Positions 47,756 to 60,240 of a stretch of 64,000 bases of DNA are shown here, piece by piece (positions within the stretch are counted from its first letter, which is position 1; each line of letters begins with the position of its first letter). The notes under the pieces are model-generated. The model was given only the letters and a program-made list of their open reading frames with translations, did no database searches and was not told the origin of the DNA. The stretch lies in sequence record JX560968; one strand, 5' to 3'. Made by a program: the position numbers and the translations under genes. This stretch comes from Escherichia phage EC6.

Positions 47756-48026
47756 AGAAAAGTGGGAGATTTTACCATTAGTCAGTGAAGGAGGTAATGG
47801 TTGTGAAATGTACATGATACGTGGTCATGTTCCAGAGCCAATTGCACTTGAGATGGTAAACAACTTTACAGATGGTTCTTACAAAGACTTAGGCGAACCA
47901 ACTGTCAAGCAACAATGGGTTAAACCTGTACCAGACAGCACAGGTAACTGTAGTGTACTTTATCACGTTGTAGACCCTGCAAAATGCAAATCTGCAATGG
48001 CAGTAACAAACGTAACTTTTGATTGA
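47748..48026 (+). CDS. hypothetical protein
   Basis: 92-aa ORF. Confidence 0.3.
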   Translation: MAKEKWEILPLVSEGGNGCEMYMIRGHVPEPIALEMVNNFTDGSYKDLGEPTVKQQWVKPVPDSTGNCSVLYHVVDPAKCKSAMAVTNVTFD

Positions 48027-48037
48027 GAGAGAAAACT

Positions 48038-48919
48038 ATGAAAACATCTATCCGTGTTACAGTTCATTCACCAACTAAAGGGACTCATGAAGAAGAGTTT
48101 AACATCGTCCAATTCCCTTCTGGTGAGATTGGTGGACACTTTTCGCCAGAGTTTGTTGATTTTACTGCTTATGCAGCATCATCCATCAACAATGTGATTA
48201 TGATTGTAAAAGGTTATGACAAGGACACATTGTTTGCTGTGGCACTTGCTAAAGAAGCAATTGATGATTTAATTCCTCATGATTATGCTTTAAAGACTGT
48301 CATCTTTTACTACTTACCAAATGCACGATATGACCGTCACATGTTTAAAGGTGACGCAGCAGCTTTAAAGGTTTTTGCTAAACAGATTAATGCAATGGGA
48401 TTTGGCGCAGTCTGTGCAGTTGACCCTCACAGCTATGTACCAGATAACCTGTTTAACTGCTTCCAGAGTATTCCTCAAAAGGAGATTGCAGTTCACTATG
48501 CAAATGACCCACTGGTTGATTACTTAGTAGCCCCAGATGCAGGTGCTGCTAAGAAGGTTGCAGAGACCGCTAAAGAGGTGGATAAACCATATATCACAAT
48601 GTCTAAGGTGCGTAACCTTAAGACTGGTGAAATTACTGGTATGCGAATCCTTGATGATGTTGATTTGACAGATAAAACCGTCATGATTCTGGATGATATC
48701 TGTGATGGTGGTCGAACCTTCATAGAAGCAGCTAAGCATCTCCGTGAAGCAGGTGCAAAACGTGTGGAACTCTATGTAACACATGGTATCTTCTCTAAAG
48801 ATGTTGAAAACCTTCTTGACAATGGCATTGACCACATCTACACTACAAACTCTTTAGGGGAAGCTAAAGACCGTGGCTTAACACATTATAGCCAAGTTAC
48901 TGTAGCAAACCTTGATTAA
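48038..48919 (+). CDS. ribose-phosphate pyrophosphokinase-like protein (Prs-like; candidate ADPR-pyrophosphate synthetase)
   Basis: PRPP-synthetase-type nucleotide-binding loop VMILDDICDGGRT; about 293 aa; directly upstream of NAMPT-like gene. Confidence 0.6.
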   Translation: MKTSIRVTVHSPTKGTHEEEFNIVQFPSGEIGGHFSPEFVDFTAYAASSINNVIMIVKGYDKDTLFAVALAKEAIDDLIPHDYALKTVIFYYLPNARYDRHMFKGDAAALKVFAKQINAMGFGAVCAVDPHSYVPDNLFNCFQSIPQKEIAVHYANDPLVDYLVAPDAGAAKKVAETAKEVDKPYITMSKVRNLKTGEITGMRILDDVDLTDKTVMILDDICDGGRTFIEAAKHLREAGAKRVELYVTHGIFSKDVENLLDNGIDHIYTTNSLGEAKDRGLTHYSQVTVANLD

Positions 48920-48965: not shown

Positions 48966-50747
48966 ATGACTAAATCACTTTATGCAGTACCAGCAGGTCT
49001 TAATGCAGATGCTTACAAGGCATCACATATATATCAGTATCCAGATGTCACACAGTACCTTATGCTGAACCTGACACCACGTAGTGATAAATGGTTTAAC
49101 AGCCCTTTAGCAATTGATGGTGTAGTAGCTTTTGGTATTCAACGTTTTATTAAAGATTACTTGATAGACCACTGGAATGCCACCTTCTTTGGACGTGACA
49201 AAAAAGAAGTAATTGACGAAATCTTAGAAGTCATGAACGGTGTTCTGGGTAAAGATGCTATTGGTCGAGAACATTGGGAAGCACTTCACGACTTAGGTTA
49301 TCTACCAGTTGAAGTATACGCTGTAGAAGAAGGTACAGTTGTCCCTATGCGTGTACCAATGATTGTCTTCCAGAACACTGTTTCAGGTTTCCATTGGGTA
49401 GCAGGGTATCTAGAAGATGCTTTCTCTGCTGAGATTTGGAAGGCTTGTACCATTGCAACTATTGCATTGCACTACAAACGTATCTGTAAGAAGTGGTCTG
49501 ACCTTACTTGTGATAACGACTTACATTTGCCTTATCAGTGCCATGACTTTGCTATGCGTGGTATGTCCGGCTTTACTGATGACGCATTTAACGCTGTAGG
49601 CCACTTAACCAGCTTTAAAGGTACTGACAGTTTCCCTACTGTGTATACGGCTAAACGAATCTATGGACAGTCCTACCCAATCTCTGATATTGGCAGCTCT
49701 GTACCAGCCACTGAACACTCTGTAATGTGTGCAAACATTGCTTGGGAAGGTGGTAATGAGTTGATTGAAGAAGAAAGACGCTTTAAAGGTGAGTTACAAA
49801 CCTTCCGTCGTTTCTTAACAGAAACTTACCCAACTGGTATTGCAAGTGTTGTTTCAGACACTTATAATTTCTGGAGAACTGTATCAGAAATCTTACCAGC
49901 GCTTCGTAAAGAGATTATGGAACGTGATGGCAAACTGGTCATCCGTCCTGACTCTGGTGACCCTGTACATATTGTCACAGGTTATAAAGCAATCCACTTA
50001 GAGTGTGCTAAAAAGGCTTATTATGAACATCTTAGCAAGCTGGAAGCTAGTGATACAATGCTGAATGCTGTTCTGAACATGAAGCTTGAAAACATCAGCT
50101 ATGGTATTGCTGGATGGCTACTGTCAGAAGGCTACGAAATGGTTGTTGACCGAGAAGACTTTGAAGTTGCTGATACAGTGATGTTGAAAAATGCTTATAT
50201 GGTTGGCTCTGCAAACGTTGTAACACGTCCTGTAGCAGAGATTGATGGAGCTATTAAGACCCTGTACAACATCTTCGGAGGGACTATCAACTCTAAAGGT
50301 TTTAAGGTACTGGATGAGCACATTGGACTTATCTATGGTGACTCTATCACGTTGGAACGTGCAAACGAAATCCTGAAGCGTCTGTATGAAATGGGTTTTG
50401 CAAGCTCTAACGTAGTTTTTGGTGTAGGTTCTTACACTTATCAGTATATGACTCGTGACACCTTTGCATTTGCTGTTAAAGCAACTCTTGCAAGCATCGG
50501 TGGTAAAGAGATTATGCTTGCAAAAGACCCTAAAACAGATAGTGGTGTTAAGAAATCTGCCTTTGGTGGTGTAGCACCTATGTGGGATGGTGATAAGCTG
50601 AAAGCTGTAGATGGCTACGGATTCCAGAGTTTTGCAGATGTACTTGACCACCCAGCTTGTGCTTTACGTTTAGTCTTTAGTGACTCTGAGCAGTTTGGTT
50701 ACACAACTCTTGGTGATATTCGAAATAATATTGACAAGCAGCTTTAA
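48966..50747 (+). CDS. nicotinamide phosphoribosyltransferase-family protein (NAMPT/NadV-like; candidate nicotinamide ADPR transferase)
   Basis: NAMPT signatures IRPDSGDPV, GLIYGDS, NVVFGVGSYTYQ; 593 aa. Confidence 0.65.
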   Translation: MTKSLYAVPAGLNADAYKASHIYQYPDVTQYLMLNLTPRSDKWFNSPLAIDGVVAFGIQRFIKDYLIDHWNATFFGRDKKEVIDEILEVMNGVLGKDAIGREHWEALHDLGYLPVEVYAVEEGTVVPMRVPMIVFQNTVSGFHWVAGYLEDAFSAEIWKACTIATIALHYKRICKKWSDLTCDNDLHLPYQCHDFAMRGMSGFTDDAFNAVGHLTSFKGTDSFPTVYTAKRIYGQSYPISDIGSSVPATEHSVMCANIAWEGGNELIEEERRFKGELQTFRRFLTETYPTGIASVVSDTYNFWRTVSEILPALRKEIMERDGKLVIRPDSGDPVHIVTGYKAIHLECAKKAYYEHLSKLEASDTMLNAVLNMKLENISYGIAGWLLSEGYEMVVDREDFEVADTVMLKNAYMVGSANVVTRPVAEIDGAIKTLYNIFGGTINSKGFKVLDEHIGLIYGDSITLERANEILKRLYEMGFASSNVVFGVGSYTYQYMTRDTFAFAVKATLASIGGKEIMLAKDPKTDSGVKKSAFGGVAPMWDGDKLKAVDGYGFQSFADVLDHPACALRLVFSDSEQFGYTTLGDIRNNIDKQL

Positions 50748-51322: not shown

Positions 51323-53690
51323 ATGCGCATGGTAAACGACCACGCAGAAGTGATTAAGAGTTCAACTTCTTTAGAGACGTCTCAGGCACAGATTACAATG
51401 ACACCTGAAATGTTCAGCCTTTTGAGTTCTGGTGTATATACCTTTAAAGAAAGGGCAGTCATTCGTGAACTGTCATGTAACGCAGTAGATGCTCAGAAAG
51501 AAGCTGGAAAAGAGAACATCCCTTTCCATGTGCATTTACCTACTCGTTTTGAGCCTTACTTTGAAGTTCGTGATTTTGGAACTGGATTGACTCATGATAA
51601 AGTTATGAGTTTGTATCTAAACTACGGGGCTTCTACGAAGAATGACTCTAATGACTACATTGGTGCAATGGGTATCGGCTCAAAATCTCCATTTGCAATT
51701 GCTCAGTCATTCACAGTATCTAGCTATGTTGATGGTGTTGTTAATAAGTACTCTGTTTATCTTGAGAATGGTATCCCTCAAGTAACTAAGCTGACTACTA
51801 ACCCAATAAAAGAACCTAATGGTTTAGCTGTACGTGTAGCAGTTGCTGACCATCGTATCTCAAAGTTCTTTGAAGAGGCTGGTCACGTATACTCATACTT
51901 TGCTGTAAAACCAGAAAGTAATATCGAGTATGACGATATATTAGCAGATATGAACGTCATTGCCCGTGAAGAAGGTGTTTATGATGCCATGATTCATAAG
52001 CAAAGCTGGCGTTCTAGTGGTAACAGGACAGAGTTTAATGTGGTGATGGGTAATATTGCCTATCCAGTGAACATGGAAGCATTACTTGGTGATGATTTCT
52101 TCAAAGTATTGCCAGAATTTTTCCGTAGGAGCGTAGACCTTGTAAACATCTACATGCCTATTGGTTCAGTTGCTATTGCAGCTTCTCGTGAAGCATTGCA
52201 GATGAATGACACGACAAAAAACTGTTATCATTGAGGCTACTAAAAAGATAACTGAAGCAATTACAAAGGATGTTATCAAGAAAGTTAACAGTCAACCTAC
52301 ACTTATGGATGCTGCACAGGCTTATGCTGAGTTACGTTTGAACTCACGAGAGATGTTTAATGCTGTGTGTCCAAAGCTAGAGTGGGGTGGTGTTAAGCTT
52401 GATTCTCTGGAAGAAGAATTACTAAACATTCGTCGTGGAATTATCTACGCAGAAGACGGCTCAGTTATCTATGAACGTGATGGTAAAGGTAATATTAAGG
52501 TTGATAGGAACGGAAACAATATCCCTAAAGTAGATTATCTTTATAATCCAGTTGCTTATGTTAAGTTCAACTCTTTAGAAAGTAAGATTCGTGCAACAGC
52601 ACTTTCCTACACTCAAGAGGCAAGTATGTTCAATATCTTTGGCGCAATGCGTAAAAGTCAAATTGAACAGTTTTTGTTTGTTATAAACGACCGTCGCAAT
52701 AAAAATGGTACTGAGAAGACTGTAGGACGCAATCAGATTCTGCGTGGTGCATGTCGAGACTATGCCAGTGAGTCTAGTCTGTTTCACAGATACAACGGTA
52801 TCGTCTTTGTATTCTCGACTGAAAAAGAGTTAGACAACCTAATCAATCTGCACAAACTTGATAAAAGCTTGTTAAAGATTGTGAAGATGTCTGATAAGGA
52901 ACATCATTATCAGCGTAAAGAAGCTGTAAGAGGTGTTGTAAAACTTTGGAAAGCTGTTCCAGCAGAAGGTGTAGCTTCATACAAAGAGGTGTCAGAGGAC
53001 TTAGATACGATTGAAGAACCTCAGCTTTACATTAAGGCAATTGGTGACACAGTTGATGGTGAATGTTTTTGCTCATCTCCAGAAGATGTAGCTAAGTCAG
53101 TTGCTAATGTTACAGGTAAGACAGTCTATGTTTTCCGAAAAGCAAATTGGAAAAAGATACCAGAAGATTGGATTGAAGTAGATGAGAAACTCTTGAACGA
53201 CAGCTTAACTGATGTTCACTGGATTAACCATAACAGATATATGACGCGTATCTATATGAATGGTGTCCTTGACCTTACAAGCAGTTGGATTATTGCCAGA
53301 AACTTTACATTCAATAACAGGAAGATTTCTCGTGGTTATTGCTATTCACGGGATACAAACAAAACTATCTTCCTAGAAGGAAATGAAGAGGCTGTAGAGG
53401 CAATGTTCGGTAAAATCCAATACGTTGCTGCACCGTTTGCATACACTTATACTATTAGTAGATTGCAAACTTTGAAAGAATGTCTTGACAACGATACAAA
53501 GCTGTACAAGAAAATCAAGAAAGCTGGTGACCGTATGGTCATTAAGGTGACAAACTACCTTTCAAAAAGAAAACAAGAAAACTTCTTGCTTTCTCATTTA
53601 GATTGGAATAAAGTGTCACCCATCGAAGTGAGTAAGTTCTTGGGCTTTGATGTGAAGTGTGTTCCAGAAGGGACTACAATTTACGATTAA
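51323..53690 (+). CDS. rIIA: rIIA-like protein with GHKL ATPase N-terminal domain; two overlapping ORFs (51323..52234, 52206..53690) joined by a frame change at A6 run 52216-52221
   Basis: Bergerat-fold motifs ELSCNAVDA, RDFGTGL, GAMGIGSKS; combined about 797 aa; followed by rIIB-like gene as in T4. Confidence 0.5.
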
Positions 53691-54979: not shown

Positions 54980-55528
54980 ATGAAGAAGTTGATTCTAGGT
55001 TTGTGCTTAATGTTTACAGCACACTTATCTTATGCAGTTGACTGCCCAGAGCTATCAATTAGTCAAAAAGTAAACATGTTAAAAGCTTACCAGTATGGTG
55101 AGAATAATATGGGTAAAGGTTGGGGTATCACTCTAGCTGCTATAGCCTTACAAGAGTCAGAGTTAGGTCTGAAGGTAGAGAATAAAAAGACCCATGACTA
55201 TGGTATCTTCCAGAATCACTTGAAGACTGTTGTAAAGCGTAACAAAATCAGTCCTAATGTGGCTAAAAAGAAACTCTTAAAAGATTTTGACTATGCTGCA
55301 AAGGAAACACACAAAGAGCTTGAGTTTTGGACGAAGGTACATGGTCAACCAAAGTCAAAGAAGACTTTACAAAAAGTTTTAGCATCATATAATGCTGGGT
55401 ATTCGTACAAAATTCCTAAAGCTAAGAAATACTCTCAGGATGTCTATAACAATATGAAAGTTATCGCTCAATGTGAATTTGCAACAAACATTTCTAAGGT
55501 AAATCATGAAAAAATTAAGAAAGTCTGA
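54980..55528 (+). CDS. secreted lytic transglycosylase-like protein (SLT domain; candidate endolysin)
   Basis: Signal peptide MKKLILGLCLMFTAHLSYA; SLT-like AIALQESELG...DYGIFQ. Confidence 0.45.
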   Translation: MKKLILGLCLMFTAHLSYAVDCPELSISQKVNMLKAYQYGENNMGKGWGITLAAIALQESELGLKVENKKTHDYGIFQNHLKTVVKRNKISPNVAKKKLLKDFDYAAKETHKELEFWTKVHGQPKSKKTLQKVLASYNAGYSYKIPKAKKYSQDVYNNMKVIAQCEFATNISKVNHEKIKKV

Positions 55529-56201
55529 TGAAGTACTGTGTCATGCTTATGACTTGCATCCTCATGAGTTAGGTCTTGATTCCTGTGTATGGACTCCAGA
55601 ACAGTGCAGAGATTTTGAAGATACTGCAAGAGAAGTTGTATGTTCACTTGAAGAGTTCCACACGCCAGAAACAATTGTGAACGTTGTGGACAAAGAGACT
55701 GGACAATCTATAGGTGTAAGACGTGACAGTTTAGTTATAGTCAATAAAGACCTTGTAGAAAAAGGTAACCTCATCTTAGCAGATATTGATGGTGTTCTTA
55801 CAAATTTTAATCACGAAGACTGCTCAACGGAACTGATTGATGGGTCATTTTCACAGTACACTAATTTGCTTGACTCTGTAAGTGCAAAACCAACGTATGT
55901 TTTCAATATTATTGATGCAATTGCTAACCATGCTGCCATTGGACTCTTGACAGCGAGGGGTGAATCTCAGAGAATACCTACTGAGATGTTTTTAAGGCAT
56001 TACATAGAGCATGATTACATGCTTTTCATGCGTGGTTTTGGAACTAACTCTATAAGTGCAGAAAGTTTAAAAGTTAGGATGATTCAGTCTTGCATTCTTC
56101 CTTACTTTAATATAGTATGCTTTATAGAAGATACAGAGAAGAATGTTCAGAAGGTAAACAGAATCCTTCCACACATTAAAACCATGTTAGTTAAACATTG
56201 A
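55506..56201 (+). CDS. HAD-superfamily hydrolase-like protein (putative)
   Basis: LILADIDGVLTNF resembles HAD motif I DxDG. Confidence 0.3.
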   Translation: MKKLRKSDEVLCHAYDLHPHELGLDSCVWTPEQCRDFEDTAREVVCSLEEFHTPETIVNVVDKETGQSIGVRRDSLVIVNKDLVEKGNLILADIDGVLTNFNHEDCSTELIDGSFSQYTNLLDSVSAKPTYVFNIIDAIANHAAIGLLTARGESQRIPTEMFLRHYIEHDYMLFMRGFGTNSISAESLKVRMIQSCILPYFNIVCFIEDTEKNVQKVNRILPHIKTMLVKH

Positions 56202-56729: not shown

Positions 56730-57077
56730 ATGACATTTAAAGAGTTCTGCCAAGATACTTTCATAATTGTTTTCTTAGTTGGAGCAGGTGTCTGGGGAGG
56801 ATACTCTTACAGAGACTACCAAGTTGCTGAAGCTGAGCTAAATAATGAGAAACTAATAAGTGTTGCTAAAGATGCTTATCAGGAAGGTTTAGCCACACTC
56901 AGCACCAATTACAAAAATGATTTGAAAGACGTGCTTGCTAAGAATAAGCACACAAAAGAGGTACTAACATATGAAAAGACTAAGCCAGAGTTTTATAATG
57001 TTTGTGTTACTGATAATTATGTCAGGGTGTTCAACGAACAAAGTGAACAGTACATTCAAAAACTCCCAAGTAAGTGA
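56730..57077 (+). CDS. i-spanin-like protein (Rz-like)
   Basis: N-terminal TM FIIVFLVGAGVWGGY then coiled-coil periplasmic domain; overlapped by a lipoprotein ORF in another frame. Confidence 0.4.
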   Translation: MTFKEFCQDTFIIVFLVGAGVWGGYSYRDYQVAEAELNNEKLISVAKDAYQEGLATLSTNYKNDLKDVLAKNKHTKEVLTYEKTKPEFYNVCVTDNYVRVFNEQSEQYIQKLPSK

Positions 57078-57240
57078 GAGTGACAAGTACACTCAAGAAG
57101 AGTCAAGATTCACTGTCAAAGGTAATACTGGTAGTGATGTGGCAGCAGCCCTTGAGTTTTATCGTGATGGTTTTTACCAGTGCACAATCAAAGCTAATAA
57201 CCTTATTGACATGATTTTATTAGGGAACAAACAGCAATGA
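56971..57240 (+). CDS. o-spanin-like lipoprotein (Rz1-like), overlapping 3' end of i-spanin gene
   Basis: Signal peptide with lipobox-like IMSGC (MKRLSQSFIMFVLLIIMSGCS); AGAGG RBS; starts inside 56730..57077. Confidence 0.4.
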   Translation: MKRLSQSFIMFVLLIIMSGCSTNKVNSTFKNSQVSESDKYTQEESRFTVKGNTGSDVAAALEFYRDGFYQCTIKANNLIDMILLGNKQQ

Positions 57241-58347: not shown

Positions 58348-58548
58348 ATGGCTGACTTCTGCAAAGACTGTTCTATCGAAATGTTCGGACGTGATACAGG
58401 TGACTTAAAAGGTCTTATCACTGAAGATGACTTTAAAGCTGGCTATGCAATGCCAGTAATCTGTGAAGGTTGTGGATGTATCTGGGTAGACCACGAAGGA
58501 CAACGTGTAAAACCTTCAGAAGACAAAGAATCTTGGGAGAGATGTTAA
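58348..58548 (+). CDS. small zinc-ribbon protein
   Basis: CKDC...CEGCGC cysteine pairs. Confidence 0.3.
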   Translation: MADFCKDCSIEMFGRDTGDLKGLITEDDFKAGYAMPVICEGCGCIWVDHEGQRVKPSEDKESWERC

Positions 58549-59334
58549 ATGGGTATTGTAAAAATAATCAATGGTGATATCTTTTCCGCCTTTGATAAAG
58601 GTAAGTTTGACATCATTGGTCACGGCTGCAACTGTATGAACTTAATGGGTGCAGGTATCGCTGACAAGATTTCTAAACTTTACCCAAAAGCATATGAGAC
58701 CGATACAGAAGTTTATTTGTATGCAGGTGGCATAGGCCACAAACCCTGTGAAAATTTACTAGGTAATTTCTCTGTAGCACGTTTAGAACAAGGCCGTATA
58801 GCTAACCTTTACACTCAGCTTAAGACTGGTAAAGATGCCCGATATAGTGCTTTAGAGTCATCTTTGAAACAGCTTAACAGATACTGTGAAGTCAATCAGT
58901 TGAAGAAAGTTGGGTTACCTATGATTGGTGCAGGTATCGGTGGGCTAGACCCTCAAGCAGTCACCGTTATCATTAATCAGGTGATGAAGAGTGTAGATGT
59001 GTATCTGTATGTCTACGAAGGAGAGATGTACCACAAGTTACGCTCAGGTTGGAAGAACTACTGTGAACCAGAATACTTTGCAGGTGTAGTAGTATTCACG
59101 GATGATGCAGTTACCCTCTTCAGACGAAGAAAAGGTAAGATACATCAAAGTAACCCTCCGGTTGAAAAGATGTCTCTAAGTAACGCTCTAGTTACCCACC
59201 TGTCGAAGAGCAATCACAGGATTGCAGTAACATTTGGCAGTGATGCAGATACATATATCTATGCAAGAACTGATGAGGATGTTGAGGAAATTTTCTCTTC
59301 ACAGGAAGTTACCTTCTTAGACGCAAAGAACTAA
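58549..59334 (+). CDS. macro-domain-like protein (ADP-ribose binding/processing, putative)
   Basis: N-terminus INGDIF...FDIIGHGCNCMNLMGAGIADKI aligns by eye with macro motif GDIT...DAIVNAANxxLLGGGGVDGAI. Confidence 0.45.
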   Translation: MGIVKIINGDIFSAFDKGKFDIIGHGCNCMNLMGAGIADKISKLYPKAYETDTEVYLYAGGIGHKPCENLLGNFSVARLEQGRIANLYTQLKTGKDARYSALESSLKQLNRYCEVNQLKKVGLPMIGAGIGGLDPQAVTVIINQVMKSVDVYLYVYEGEMYHKLRSGWKNYCEPEYFAGVVVFTDDAVTLFRRRKGKIHQSNPPVEKMSLSNALVTHLSKSNHRIAVTFGSDADTYIYARTDEDVEEIFSSQEVTFLDAKN

Positions 59335-59365
59335 GATACTCTGTAGAATATTCACAATAGACTAA

Positions 59366-59411
59366 GCCTTTCTTATCTGGGAAATCTTTCAGGTAAGGAG
59401 GGCTTTTTCAT
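59366..59411 (+). terminator. imperfect long hairpin with U-tract (terminator-like)
   Basis: AGCCTTTCTTATCTGG...CAGGTAAGGAGGGCT then TTTTTCATTTC. Confidence 0.35.
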
Positions 59412-59592
59412 TTCAGGATTGTGCAGGTAGAGTTCTGTAGAGAAATCTGTAGAGAAAATTTTGAACTCCAAAGAGAAAATTCATTTTCAAACTGTGCAGG
59501 TAATCTCCAAAGAGCTTTTTCATTTTCAAAACGTGCAGATAAAAATCAGGTCGGGCAAGAAAAATCATTTTAGAATTGTGCAGGTAGGTGGG
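59404..59592 (+). repeat. array of four ~26-nt direct repeats (consensus TCATTTTCAAAAnTGTGCAGGTA)
   Basis: Copies at 59404-59430, 59477-59503, 59516-59543, 59560-59590 with 40-70 nt spacing; extra AGAGAAA sub-repeats. Confidence 0.6.
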
Positions 59593-59763
59593 TGTAGGTG
59601 GGGATGTCGCCATTTCTCACAAGGCTACCACATCTGGAAATAAAAGTCAACAGAAAAATTTGTAGCGGATTGAAAAATAATTCTTGATTGTAGTTCTGTT
59701 TTGTGGTAGTCGCGTGCGCCCGTTTCATTACAGTTTTTTGCAAAAATATTTTTAAAATTTTTC

Positions 59764-59859
59764 TTGACTCCTCGAACGGGTTTTTATAGTATTTGCATCA
59801 GACGGGGAGGGAGTGACCTTCCCCACTAAATAACTAACCTTAAACTAGGAGATTCAAAA
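59764..59859 (+). promoter_or_regulatory. promoter + 5' stem-loop + SD cassette (type I variant)
   Basis: TTGACT-N17-TAGTAT, then GGGGAGGGAGTGACCTTCCCC hairpin, then AACTAGGAGATTCAAAAATG. Confidence 0.55.
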
Positions 59860-60240
59860 ATGGCTTATCGTGCACCTAAATTCATCAATAAAGACAACTT
59901 CCGCAACGCACTGGAAAAATCACTTGATGAGAACTTTACAGGTCAGATTATTATTGTTCACGCATATAATTTTAAGTATGATATTAACGGGAATAAAATC
60001 AATCATTACACGGCAACAATGGTAGATGGTACACTATCAAGTGAAAAAGCCGTACTGAATGCACTTGCAGGACGTGGCAAAAACCTGATAAAATGCAATA
60101 AGAGACGTTATCAAGGCGGCGCATATGGTTATGATGATGCTGTTTACCATCTTGAAAATATGGGCTATCAGGTGGAAAAAGCCGGAATATCTCAAATAAT
60201 TGGCAGTGATGGATATGTGACAATTTTCAAAATTAAATAA
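59860..60240 (+). CDS. early hypothetical protein
   Basis: 126 aa; own promoter/stem-loop cassette and AGGAGA RBS. Confidence 0.45.
   Translation: MAYRAPKFINKDNFRNALEKSLDENFTGQIIIVHAYNFKYDINGNKINHYTATMVDGTLSSEKAVLNALAGRGKNLIKCNKRRYQGGAYGYDDAVYHLENMGYQVEKAGISQIIGSDGYVTIFKIK

Follow-up and report, generated by a model that had tools for sequence, protein, structure and literature searches.

Bas63 g79 and g80 encode Adps and Namat, which together make up the NAD+-reconstitution pathway NARP1 and counter NAD+ depletion. Inside 15% of NARP1 operons there is also a macro protein, Adpp (Osterman et al., bioRxiv 10.64898/2026.01.28.702374), and the purified Adpp of Vibrio phage Gary converts ADP-ribose (ADPR)-1''-phosphate, the product of aRES, to ADPR, from which NARP1 then rebuilds NAD+ (10.64898/2026.01.28.702374). 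A second phage macro protein, Tk.4 of T4, is an AdfM (anti-DarT factor macrodomain); transposon screening and a clean knockout show that it is needed for resistance to the DNA-ADP-ribosylating system DarTG2, de-ADP-ribosylation being its presumed chemistry (HIDEN-SEQ preprint, 10.1101/2025.11.20.689424). In PhiKZ, the AdfM protein gp104 strips the ADP-ribose added by DarT2 from DNA (Cell Rep 2026, PMC13309987). Here we present an analysis of a macro gene of Escherichia phage EC6 (sequence record JX560968), located in a stretch of 64,000 nucleotides that is referred to below as the window and that supplies all position numbers. Comparison of its product with these proteins suggests that it is a previously undescribed two-domain variant of the recently characterized anti-defense macro family that includes Adpp and AdfM.

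The macro domain and its family

The gene occupies positions 58549..59334 on the plus strand (ATG at 58549, TAA at 59332-59334) and encodes a protein of 261 amino acids. Residues 1-157 (58549..59019) were assigned as an N-terminal macro domain of the Poa1p/Tk.4 type from Pfam, alignment, structure and profile comparison with the PDB. The original prediction, made from the letters of the sequence, had aligned the N-terminus by eye to the ADP-ribose-binding motif of macro domains, and this likeness proved to be real. The motif H25-G-C-N28-C...M33-G-A-G36-I-A aligns residue for residue to 'HSCNCNGSWGGGIA' of yeast Poa1p (H23, N26), the same stretch (residues 25-38) aligns to 'HCISEDCRMGAGIA' of TARG1, and the Pfam Macro profile (PF01661) is matched above its gathering score (32.1 bits against 22, expectation value E=1.2e-7) over residues 25-141 and profile positions 2-117 of 118. 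The full length of the protein is also covered by a match to PHROG_335, 'phosphatase' (E=5.5e-113). The description as a macro-like protein holds for residues ~1-157; residues 158-261 form a separate domain that had been missed.

Structure prediction, which had been proposed as a check on this assignment, returned a macro fold. The AlphaFold2 model, for which 31 homologues were used, has a predicted local distance difference test score (pLDDT) of 90.2 and a predicted template modeling score (pTM) of 0.89, and from it we confidently predict the three-layer alpha/beta/alpha arrangement of macro domains. When the model was compared with the PDB using Foldseek, 237 matches were obtained at E<=0.001, and macrodomains make up 45 of the 50 that were listed. 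The top match is TARG1 (E 4.5e-10, template modeling (TM) score 0.81-0.85), with the DarG proteins of T. aquaticus and M. tuberculosis (TM ~0.8) and yeast Poa1p (TM 0.75) among the others. Profile searches of the PDB agree, with E values of 4e-17 for TARG1 and 4e-15 for Poa1p, so that human TARG1/OARD1 (PDB 4J5Q/R/S) is the best overall match by both sequence profile and structure. The macrodomain of bacterial DarG2 (PDB 5M31, 5M3E, 5M3I) belongs to the same TARG1/DarG/Poa1p (ALC1-like) group.

Neither TARG1 nor DarG provides an identity for the protein. The catalytic Lys84 and Asp125 of TARG1 are replaced by Gln90, which is invariant in 31 of the 31 family members, and, according to the profile alignment, by Gly131; these replacements exclude a mechanism of the TARG1/DarG type. 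DarG furnishes the best matches among curated families (NCBIfam NF048014, E 1.3e-12; PADLOC DarG, E 4e-13), but the NF048014 match reaches 47.7 bits against a cut-off of 250 and covers model positions 4-153 of 338 only, with Gln90 at the place of the catalytic lysine of the T-K motif. Neither homology to the C-terminal, DarT-binding domain of DarG nor an adjacent darT was found at the window locus.

The residues that the family does conserve point toward Poa1p (PDB 6LFQ), to which H-x-C-N-C...G-x-G-I-A can be aligned directly. Invariant in the family are H25, G26, N28, C29, M33, G36, A38, N86, L87, T89, Q90, P124, G127 and G129, and the window protein carries the motifs HGCNC, NLYTQ (N86-L-Y-T89-Q90) and P124-x-I-G127-A-G129 (P-IGAGIG), in agreement with the pattern of the phage Poa1p/Tk.4-type family (H-x-C/A-N-C, N-x-Y-x-Q, P-x-I-G-x-G). 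The catalytic His23 and Asn26 of Poa1p correspond to H25 and N28, so that a Poa1p-like His/Asn site appears from the alignment to be retained. Ser30 and Gly33 of Poa1p have become Leu32 and Ala35, and an active phage Adpp likewise lacks that serine and glycine. We propose that the macro domain would bind ADP-ribose and hydrolyze whatever substituent sits on C1'' of the distal ribose, with catalysis by a Poa1p-type site composed of His25/Asn28 and Thr89-Gln90 rather than by the Lys/Asp pair of TARG1 and DarG. Unlike the window protein, Poa1p is a eukaryotic housekeeping enzyme of tRNA splicing without an extra domain.

The window derives from a Felixounavirus (Ounavirinae) genome, and this region is 93-95% identical to many FelixO1-like phages of Salmonella and E. 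coli. The protein is 99.6% identical to Shy_0012 of vB_EcoM_Shy, annotated as a 'putative phosphatase', and homologues elsewhere carry the annotations 'O-acetyl-ADP-ribose deacetylase' and 'phosphatase'. A full-length copy of the 261-residue protein is present in 256 phage records, and the macro family as a whole is found in 2,804 (E<=1e-5). Among 19 distinct alleles the ratio of nonsynonymous to synonymous substitution rates (dN/dS) indicates strong purifying selection on the macro part (0.03-0.07), the value for the C-terminal part being 0.19. With 256 full-length copies and low dN/dS values, this is not a chance open reading frame (ORF). A megablast search of 5,426 complete E. coli genomes gave no match, and the gene is therefore not a prophage or host gene. 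We found no literature on this gene in Felixounavirus or VpaE1. Its counterpart in Bas63 is g95, which we identified through the PhageMaP supplement by annotation ('putative phosphatase') and position. The PhageMaP fitness values for g95 are ~0.6-1.1, compared with -1 to -4 for essential genes, on the laboratory hosts and defense strains shown, a panel without aRES or DarTG; g95 can thus be dispensed with in the laboratory, which would be expected of a conditional counter-defense gene.

Possible substrates and the link to NARP1

It is of interest to compare the window protein with the two phage proteins for which a role in counter-defense has been described, beginning with Adpp. That of Gary (KNV71_gp137) belongs to the same Poa1p-like family (BLASTP 27% identity, E 3e-13), as does the NARP1-associated macro protein of JG004 (30%, E 3e-22). 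The motifs H-x-C/A-N-C...G-x-G-I/V-A, N-x-Y/H-x-Q and P-x-I-G-x-G of Gary Adpp and other NARP1-operon macro proteins are present in the window protein as well, the first two appearing as HQCNC/YGQ in Adpp and as HGCNC/YTQ in the window protein. Tk.4 of T4 is the nearest characterized homologue (34% identity, residues 3-157 against 2-152, E 7e-24) and its HGCNC, NLYTQ and IGAGIG motifs are identical to those of the window protein; it consists of 155 residues with a macro domain only, and T4 is without NARP1. Tk.4 and Gary Adpp are in turn 34% identical to each other, and therefore all three proteins constitute one family. The suggestion in the original prediction that an ADP-ribose-processing enzyme might serve here in anti-defense gains support from this homology, which connects the protein both to resistance against DarTG2 and to the aRES/NARP1 conflict; nothing, however, points specifically to its other proposal, the degradation of an ADPR-derived signal.

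What the enzyme acts upon, and whether it cooperates with NARP1, we infer from homology and genomic context, and on these grounds we tentatively rank first a role like that of Adpp. According to this proposal, a RES-type NADase (aRES) would split NAD+ into nicotinamide and ADPR-1''-phosphate, and the macro domain would take the 1''-phosphate off the latter to yield free ADPR. The Prs-like Adps would then add pyrophosphate to the free ADPR, and the NAMPT-like Namat would join the product to nicotinamide to give NAD+. This would amount to an 'NARP1-AP' pathway with its phosphatase encoded 7.8 kb from the operon. Two plus-strand genes could supply the remaining steps. A Prs-like gene at 48023..48919 (Pfam Pribosyltran and Pribosyl_synth) is the probable Adps and a homologue of Bas63 g79, and may function together with the macro protein; a NAMPT-like gene at 48966..50747 (Pfam NAPRTase and NAMPT_N) is the probable Namat and a homologue of Bas63 g80. 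Both assignments also draw on the literature, and the Pfam matches bear out the earlier recognition of a Prs-like/NAMPT-like pair in this genome. The genome of Gary is alike in encoding both Adps and Namat.

The macro gene lies 7.8 kb downstream of the NARP1 pair, and this arrangement is not peculiar to EC6. When flanks of 10 kb were inspected, Adps and Namat were found 7.5-9.6 kb upstream, on the same strand, in every Ounavirinae-type locus with a flank long enough, and the order NAMPT-like gene, rIIA-rIIB, macro gene recurs in distant relatives in which the macro protein is 33-46% identical. In Vibrio phage K412 (L003 3169-6122) a homologous macro gene is located between the Prs-like Adps and the NAMPT-like Namat genes, and in an IMG/VR contig (L069) the stop codon of Namat overlaps the start codon of the macro gene; in these two loci the three-gene arrangement of NARP1-AP occurs naturally. 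Furthermore, aRES is present in bacteria that Felix-type phages infect or that are closely related to those they infect, namely E. coli, Klebsiella and Enterobacter. As a whole, the genomic association modestly favors a link between the macro protein and NARP1.

Several observations weigh against an Adpp-like role. The macro gene is outside the NARP1 operon, from which about 14 genes, rIIA and rIIB among them, separate it, whereas Adpp is encoded within two genes of NARP1, and the published list of NARP1-AP loci (Table S1, 10.64898/2026.01.28.702374) contains no Escherichia, Salmonella or Felix-type phage. Adpp is a single-domain protein of ~150-170 residues and the window protein, with 261, carries an orphan domain. 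Its position outside the operon and its extra domain led us to reject the protein as a canonical NARP1-AP component. The co-occurrence with NARP1 across the subfamily could reflect simple vertical inheritance, and in T4-type phages the macro gene persists although NARP1 is absent; indeed the closest characterized relative by identity and motifs, Tk.4, comes from such a phage. Finally, a neighbor-joining tree of 75 macro domains is star-like and places the two-domain (Felix) clade of the Ounavirinae apart from both the Tk.4 and the Adpp clusters.

The second-ranked explanation, which we consider a serious contender if one that is on balance not expected to hold, is that the protein is a DNA de-ADP-ribosylase like AdfM, removing the ADP-ribose that toxins of the DarT2 type place on thymidine in single-stranded phage DNA, so that replication and packaging could resume. 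The C-terminal domain would then serve as a DarG-like binder of the toxin or as a tether to DNA or the replisome. The relationship to Tk.4, the knockout of which sensitizes T4 to DarTG2, speaks for this explanation, as do the rank of DarG among the NCBIfam and PADLOC matches and of DarG macrodomains among the structural ones. The overall layout, a macro domain followed by ~100 residues, parallels that of DarG2, whose second domain binds DarT2. Fast evolution of the C-terminal domain and the replacement of the whole gene by a 41%-identical allele, both described below, are a pattern typical of proteins that touch variable host factors. On the other hand, the catalytic lysine of TARG1 and DarG is here the invariant Gln90, the position of Asp125 is a glycine, and the DarG match, far below its cut-off, does not extend beyond model position 153. 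Removal of ADP-ribose from DNA has been demonstrated for a single phage macro protein, PhiKZ AdfM, which shares only 24% identity with the window protein (E 8e-4) and has the TARG1/DarG lysine ('FPTK') where the latter has Gln90; the mechanism of Tk.4 is itself inferred. Nor is the C-terminal domain, with a charge of -5 to +2 across alleles, an obvious DNA binder or mimic.

Besides the tree, which favors neither role, two types of comparison that might have distinguished them do not do so. First, NARP1-linked macro genes include both the HQ/YGQ and the HGCNC/YTQ types, and therefore the motifs discriminate neither role. Second, the validated Adpp itself matches TARG1 better than Poa1p, and therefore the best PDB matches do not discriminate between them either. 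The two roles are not exclusive. Both reactions cleave the C1'' substituent of ADP-ribose and one enzyme may carry out both, so that the same active site that acts on ADPR-1''-phosphate may also strip ADP-ribose from DarT2-modified thymidines, as proposed for T4 Tk.4/AdfM.

A role in metabolite repair or housekeeping seems to us unlikely. The protein would in this case recycle 1''-substituted by-products of ADP-ribose to ADPR, or reverse the ADP-ribosylation of protein or RNA, and candidate substrates are ADPR-cyclic-phosphate (ADPR-cP), which arises spontaneously from the NARP1 intermediate ADPR-PP, the Tpt1-type products Appr>p and Appr-1''p, and O-acetyl-ADPR. ADPR-cP does build up in SIR2-HerA cells infected with Bas63, where it results from the breakdown of ADPR-PP, and the native role of the Poa1p family in yeast is the clearance of Appr-1''p after tRNA splicing. 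Bas63 gp107 is slightly Tpt1-like, and the counterpart in L083 and L084 of the window ORF at 55506-56201 has weak to faint matches to HAD_PNKP, the window ORF itself having no Pfam match. The annotations 'O-acetyl-ADP-ribose deacetylase' and 'phosphatase' would also fit, but they are transferred names, and among the neighboring genes no cyclic phosphodiesterase was identified. Conflict with the host accounts better for the replacement of the allele and for the variability of the C-terminal domain, and the gene is dispensable in the laboratory.

Still more improbable, in our estimation, is a protein that binds ADP-ribose or a derivative of ADPR without catalysis, as a reader or sponge, or one that acts mainly through its C-terminal domain, with the macro domain as a sensor. 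Many macrodomains only bind, the TARG1-type catalytic residues are absent, and the alternative allele is entered in one record as a 'high-affinity ADP-ribose binding module'. Against this, the residues common to the active Gary Adpp and Poa1p (the histidine, the asparagine, Thr-Gln and the glycine-rich loops) are invariant, and the dN/dS of the macro part, 0.03-0.07, is typical of an enzyme core.

The macro protein opens no new category of biology, and its interest lies in where it occurs. NARP1 was discovered in the Felixounaviruses, which include Felix O1, Bas63 and many therapeutic phages of E. coli and Salmonella, and the published phosphatase survey missed their conserved macro gene because it covered only two genes around NARP1. 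If the protein is an Adpp acting in trans, NARP1-AP would be far commoner than the 15% reported and Felixounaviruses should already resist aRES. If it is an AdfM, counter-defense against DarTG2 would reach a second major group of phages.

The C-terminal domain and replacement of the gene

Residues 158-261 (59020..59331, plus strand) form a beta-rich domain with six strands and two helices, modeled by AlphaFold2 with a pLDDT of 80, in which the motif P174-x-x-F-x-G179 and Y236 are conserved. A structure search of BFVD returned the orthologue from SUSP2 as its sole match, and a phmmer search of 1.8 billion representatives, together with a profile search, recovered the domain's own family only. 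The domain is thus without a detectable relative in sequence or fold outside its own protein family. It is nevertheless real and under purifying selection, with a dN/dS (0.19) that marks it as faster-evolving than the macro domain (0.03-0.07). The same difference is apparent over longer distances, since identity in Mooglevirus/Suspvirus-like relatives is 74-79% for the macro part and 48-56% for the C-terminal part. According to hhalign, the C-terminal domains of three Ounavirinae lineages, represented by the window type, the 41%-identical allele and the group P0010-19, are homologous (probability 96-97%); the C-terminal extensions of the Erwinia-type protein (L033) and of that in L064 are unrelated to the window domain and sit on the same macro core, and the architecture is therefore modular. 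A relationship to aRad1, an inhibitor of aRES, was rejected for want of any similarity, and no aRad1 homologue was found in the window. A function as DNA binder or DNA mimic was likewise set aside, the net charge being inconsistent across alleles and without a clear signature. This fast-evolving domain may be a module for specificity or for the binding of a partner.

About 5% of Felixounaviruses carry, at the same locus, a macro allele that is 41% identical to the window type, found in 13 phage records that include Si3, BPS17L1, finno and ECML-1. When these genomes are compared with the window, DNA identity is 93-100% up to the start codon, falls to 40-60% over the gene and the spacer downstream, and then recovers. 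The 5' breakpoint coincides with the macro start codon, as determined by comparing positions 10001-10780 of L030 and L031 with window positions 58549-59800. At the protein level the three ORFs just upstream are 92-100% identical in the phages with the alternative allele, the downstream ORFs 85-93% and Namat 98%. The alternative allele is therefore a clean cassette replacement. We also observed that VpaE1_ev035 (LR699048), by its name a derivative of VpaE1, has the alternative allele (95.7% identical to P0009) and VpaE1 (KM657822) the window type, which suggests that the locus is exchangeable by recombination between co-cultured phages. A search for a paper describing this exchange in VpaE1_ev035 found none.

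An orphan C-terminal domain together with an allele swap would be expected where a protein directly opposes host factors that vary. The two features, combined with the layout that the window protein shares with DarG2, therefore keep alive a further possibility, doubtful as we hold it to be, that the phage, by fusing a Poa1p-type hydrolase to a further domain, has built a protein equivalent in function to DarG or another two-pronged antitoxin. The macro hydrolase would undo the chemistry of a host effector that consumes NAD+, whether of the DarT2 type or a RES-type NADase, and the structurally new C-terminal domain would bind and block that effector or bring the enzyme to its substrate. On this account an arms race with variable host effectors may have left its mark in the exchange of 41%-identical alleles. 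Whatever the role, the question of how macro enzymes gain specificity can be approached through the orphan domain and the allele swap.

The transcription unit and neighboring genes

The macro gene is preceded by a Shine-Dalgarno sequence, GGGAGAG (58535..58541, plus strand), read from the sequence 7 nt before the ATG, and the stop codon of the upstream ORF (TAA, 58546-58548) abuts its start codon. This upstream ORF (58348..58548, plus strand) encodes a zinc-ribbon-like protein of 66 residues with four cysteines (CxxC...CxxC) and is kept alongside the macro gene in Felixounavirus-like loci; its product is a possible partner of the macro protein. In the distant relative L083 an unrelated ORF of 63 codons, also with CxxC...CxxC, stands at the same place.

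Downstream, a strong intrinsic terminator ends the transcription unit of the macro gene. It is a plus-strand hairpin at 59364..59405, with a 19-bp stem and a 4-nt loop followed by UUUUUCAUUU, and folds with -27.4 kcal/mol (z -4.28). Past it there is a spacer of 525 bp that contains repeats, and plus-strand genes resume at 59860; the earlier statement that the gene stands at the end of the plus-strand block is correct as to the ORF, which is exact, and as to the end of a packed run of genes, but not as to the strand beyond. Within the spacer, at 59399-59587, are four direct copies of a unit of ~31-38 nt ending in ...TCATTTT-nn-AA-nn-GTGCAGGTA, a motif confined to this spot within the 64-kb window. 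An Rfam search of the intergenic region downstream of the macro gene, including the repeats, gave nothing significant. The repeats fall in the zone where identity to the phages with the alternative allele breaks down, and they may represent a repeated promoter or protein-binding site.

The run that the macro gene closes is tightly packed on the plus strand and contains rIIA, rIIB, a vs.1-like gene, spanins and several small ORFs, and from this context the gene probably belongs to the early region. Tk.4 of T4 likewise has an early-region neighborhood with vs.1 nearby. In T4, vs.1 is two genes upstream of tk.4; in the window, an ORF at 54980-55528 (182 aa) with a weak SLT match is 30-32% identical to vs.1 of the T4 type, and its presence near the macro gene looks like a remnant of a vs.1...macro synteny common to T4-like and FelixO1-like phages.

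Two further features of this run may be mentioned. The rIIA gene (51323-53690) is represented by two overlapping ORFs, 51323..52234 and 52206..53690, and comparison with vB_EcoM_Shy locates one extra C after a run of six A residues at 52222; this indel is either a genuine frameshift mutation or a sequencing error. In vB_EcoM_Shy an i-spanin/o-spanin pair is annotated, and its counterparts in the window are two overlapping ORFs on the plus strand, 56730..57077 and 56971..57240, so that these lysis genes sit within a region otherwise composed of genes of early type.

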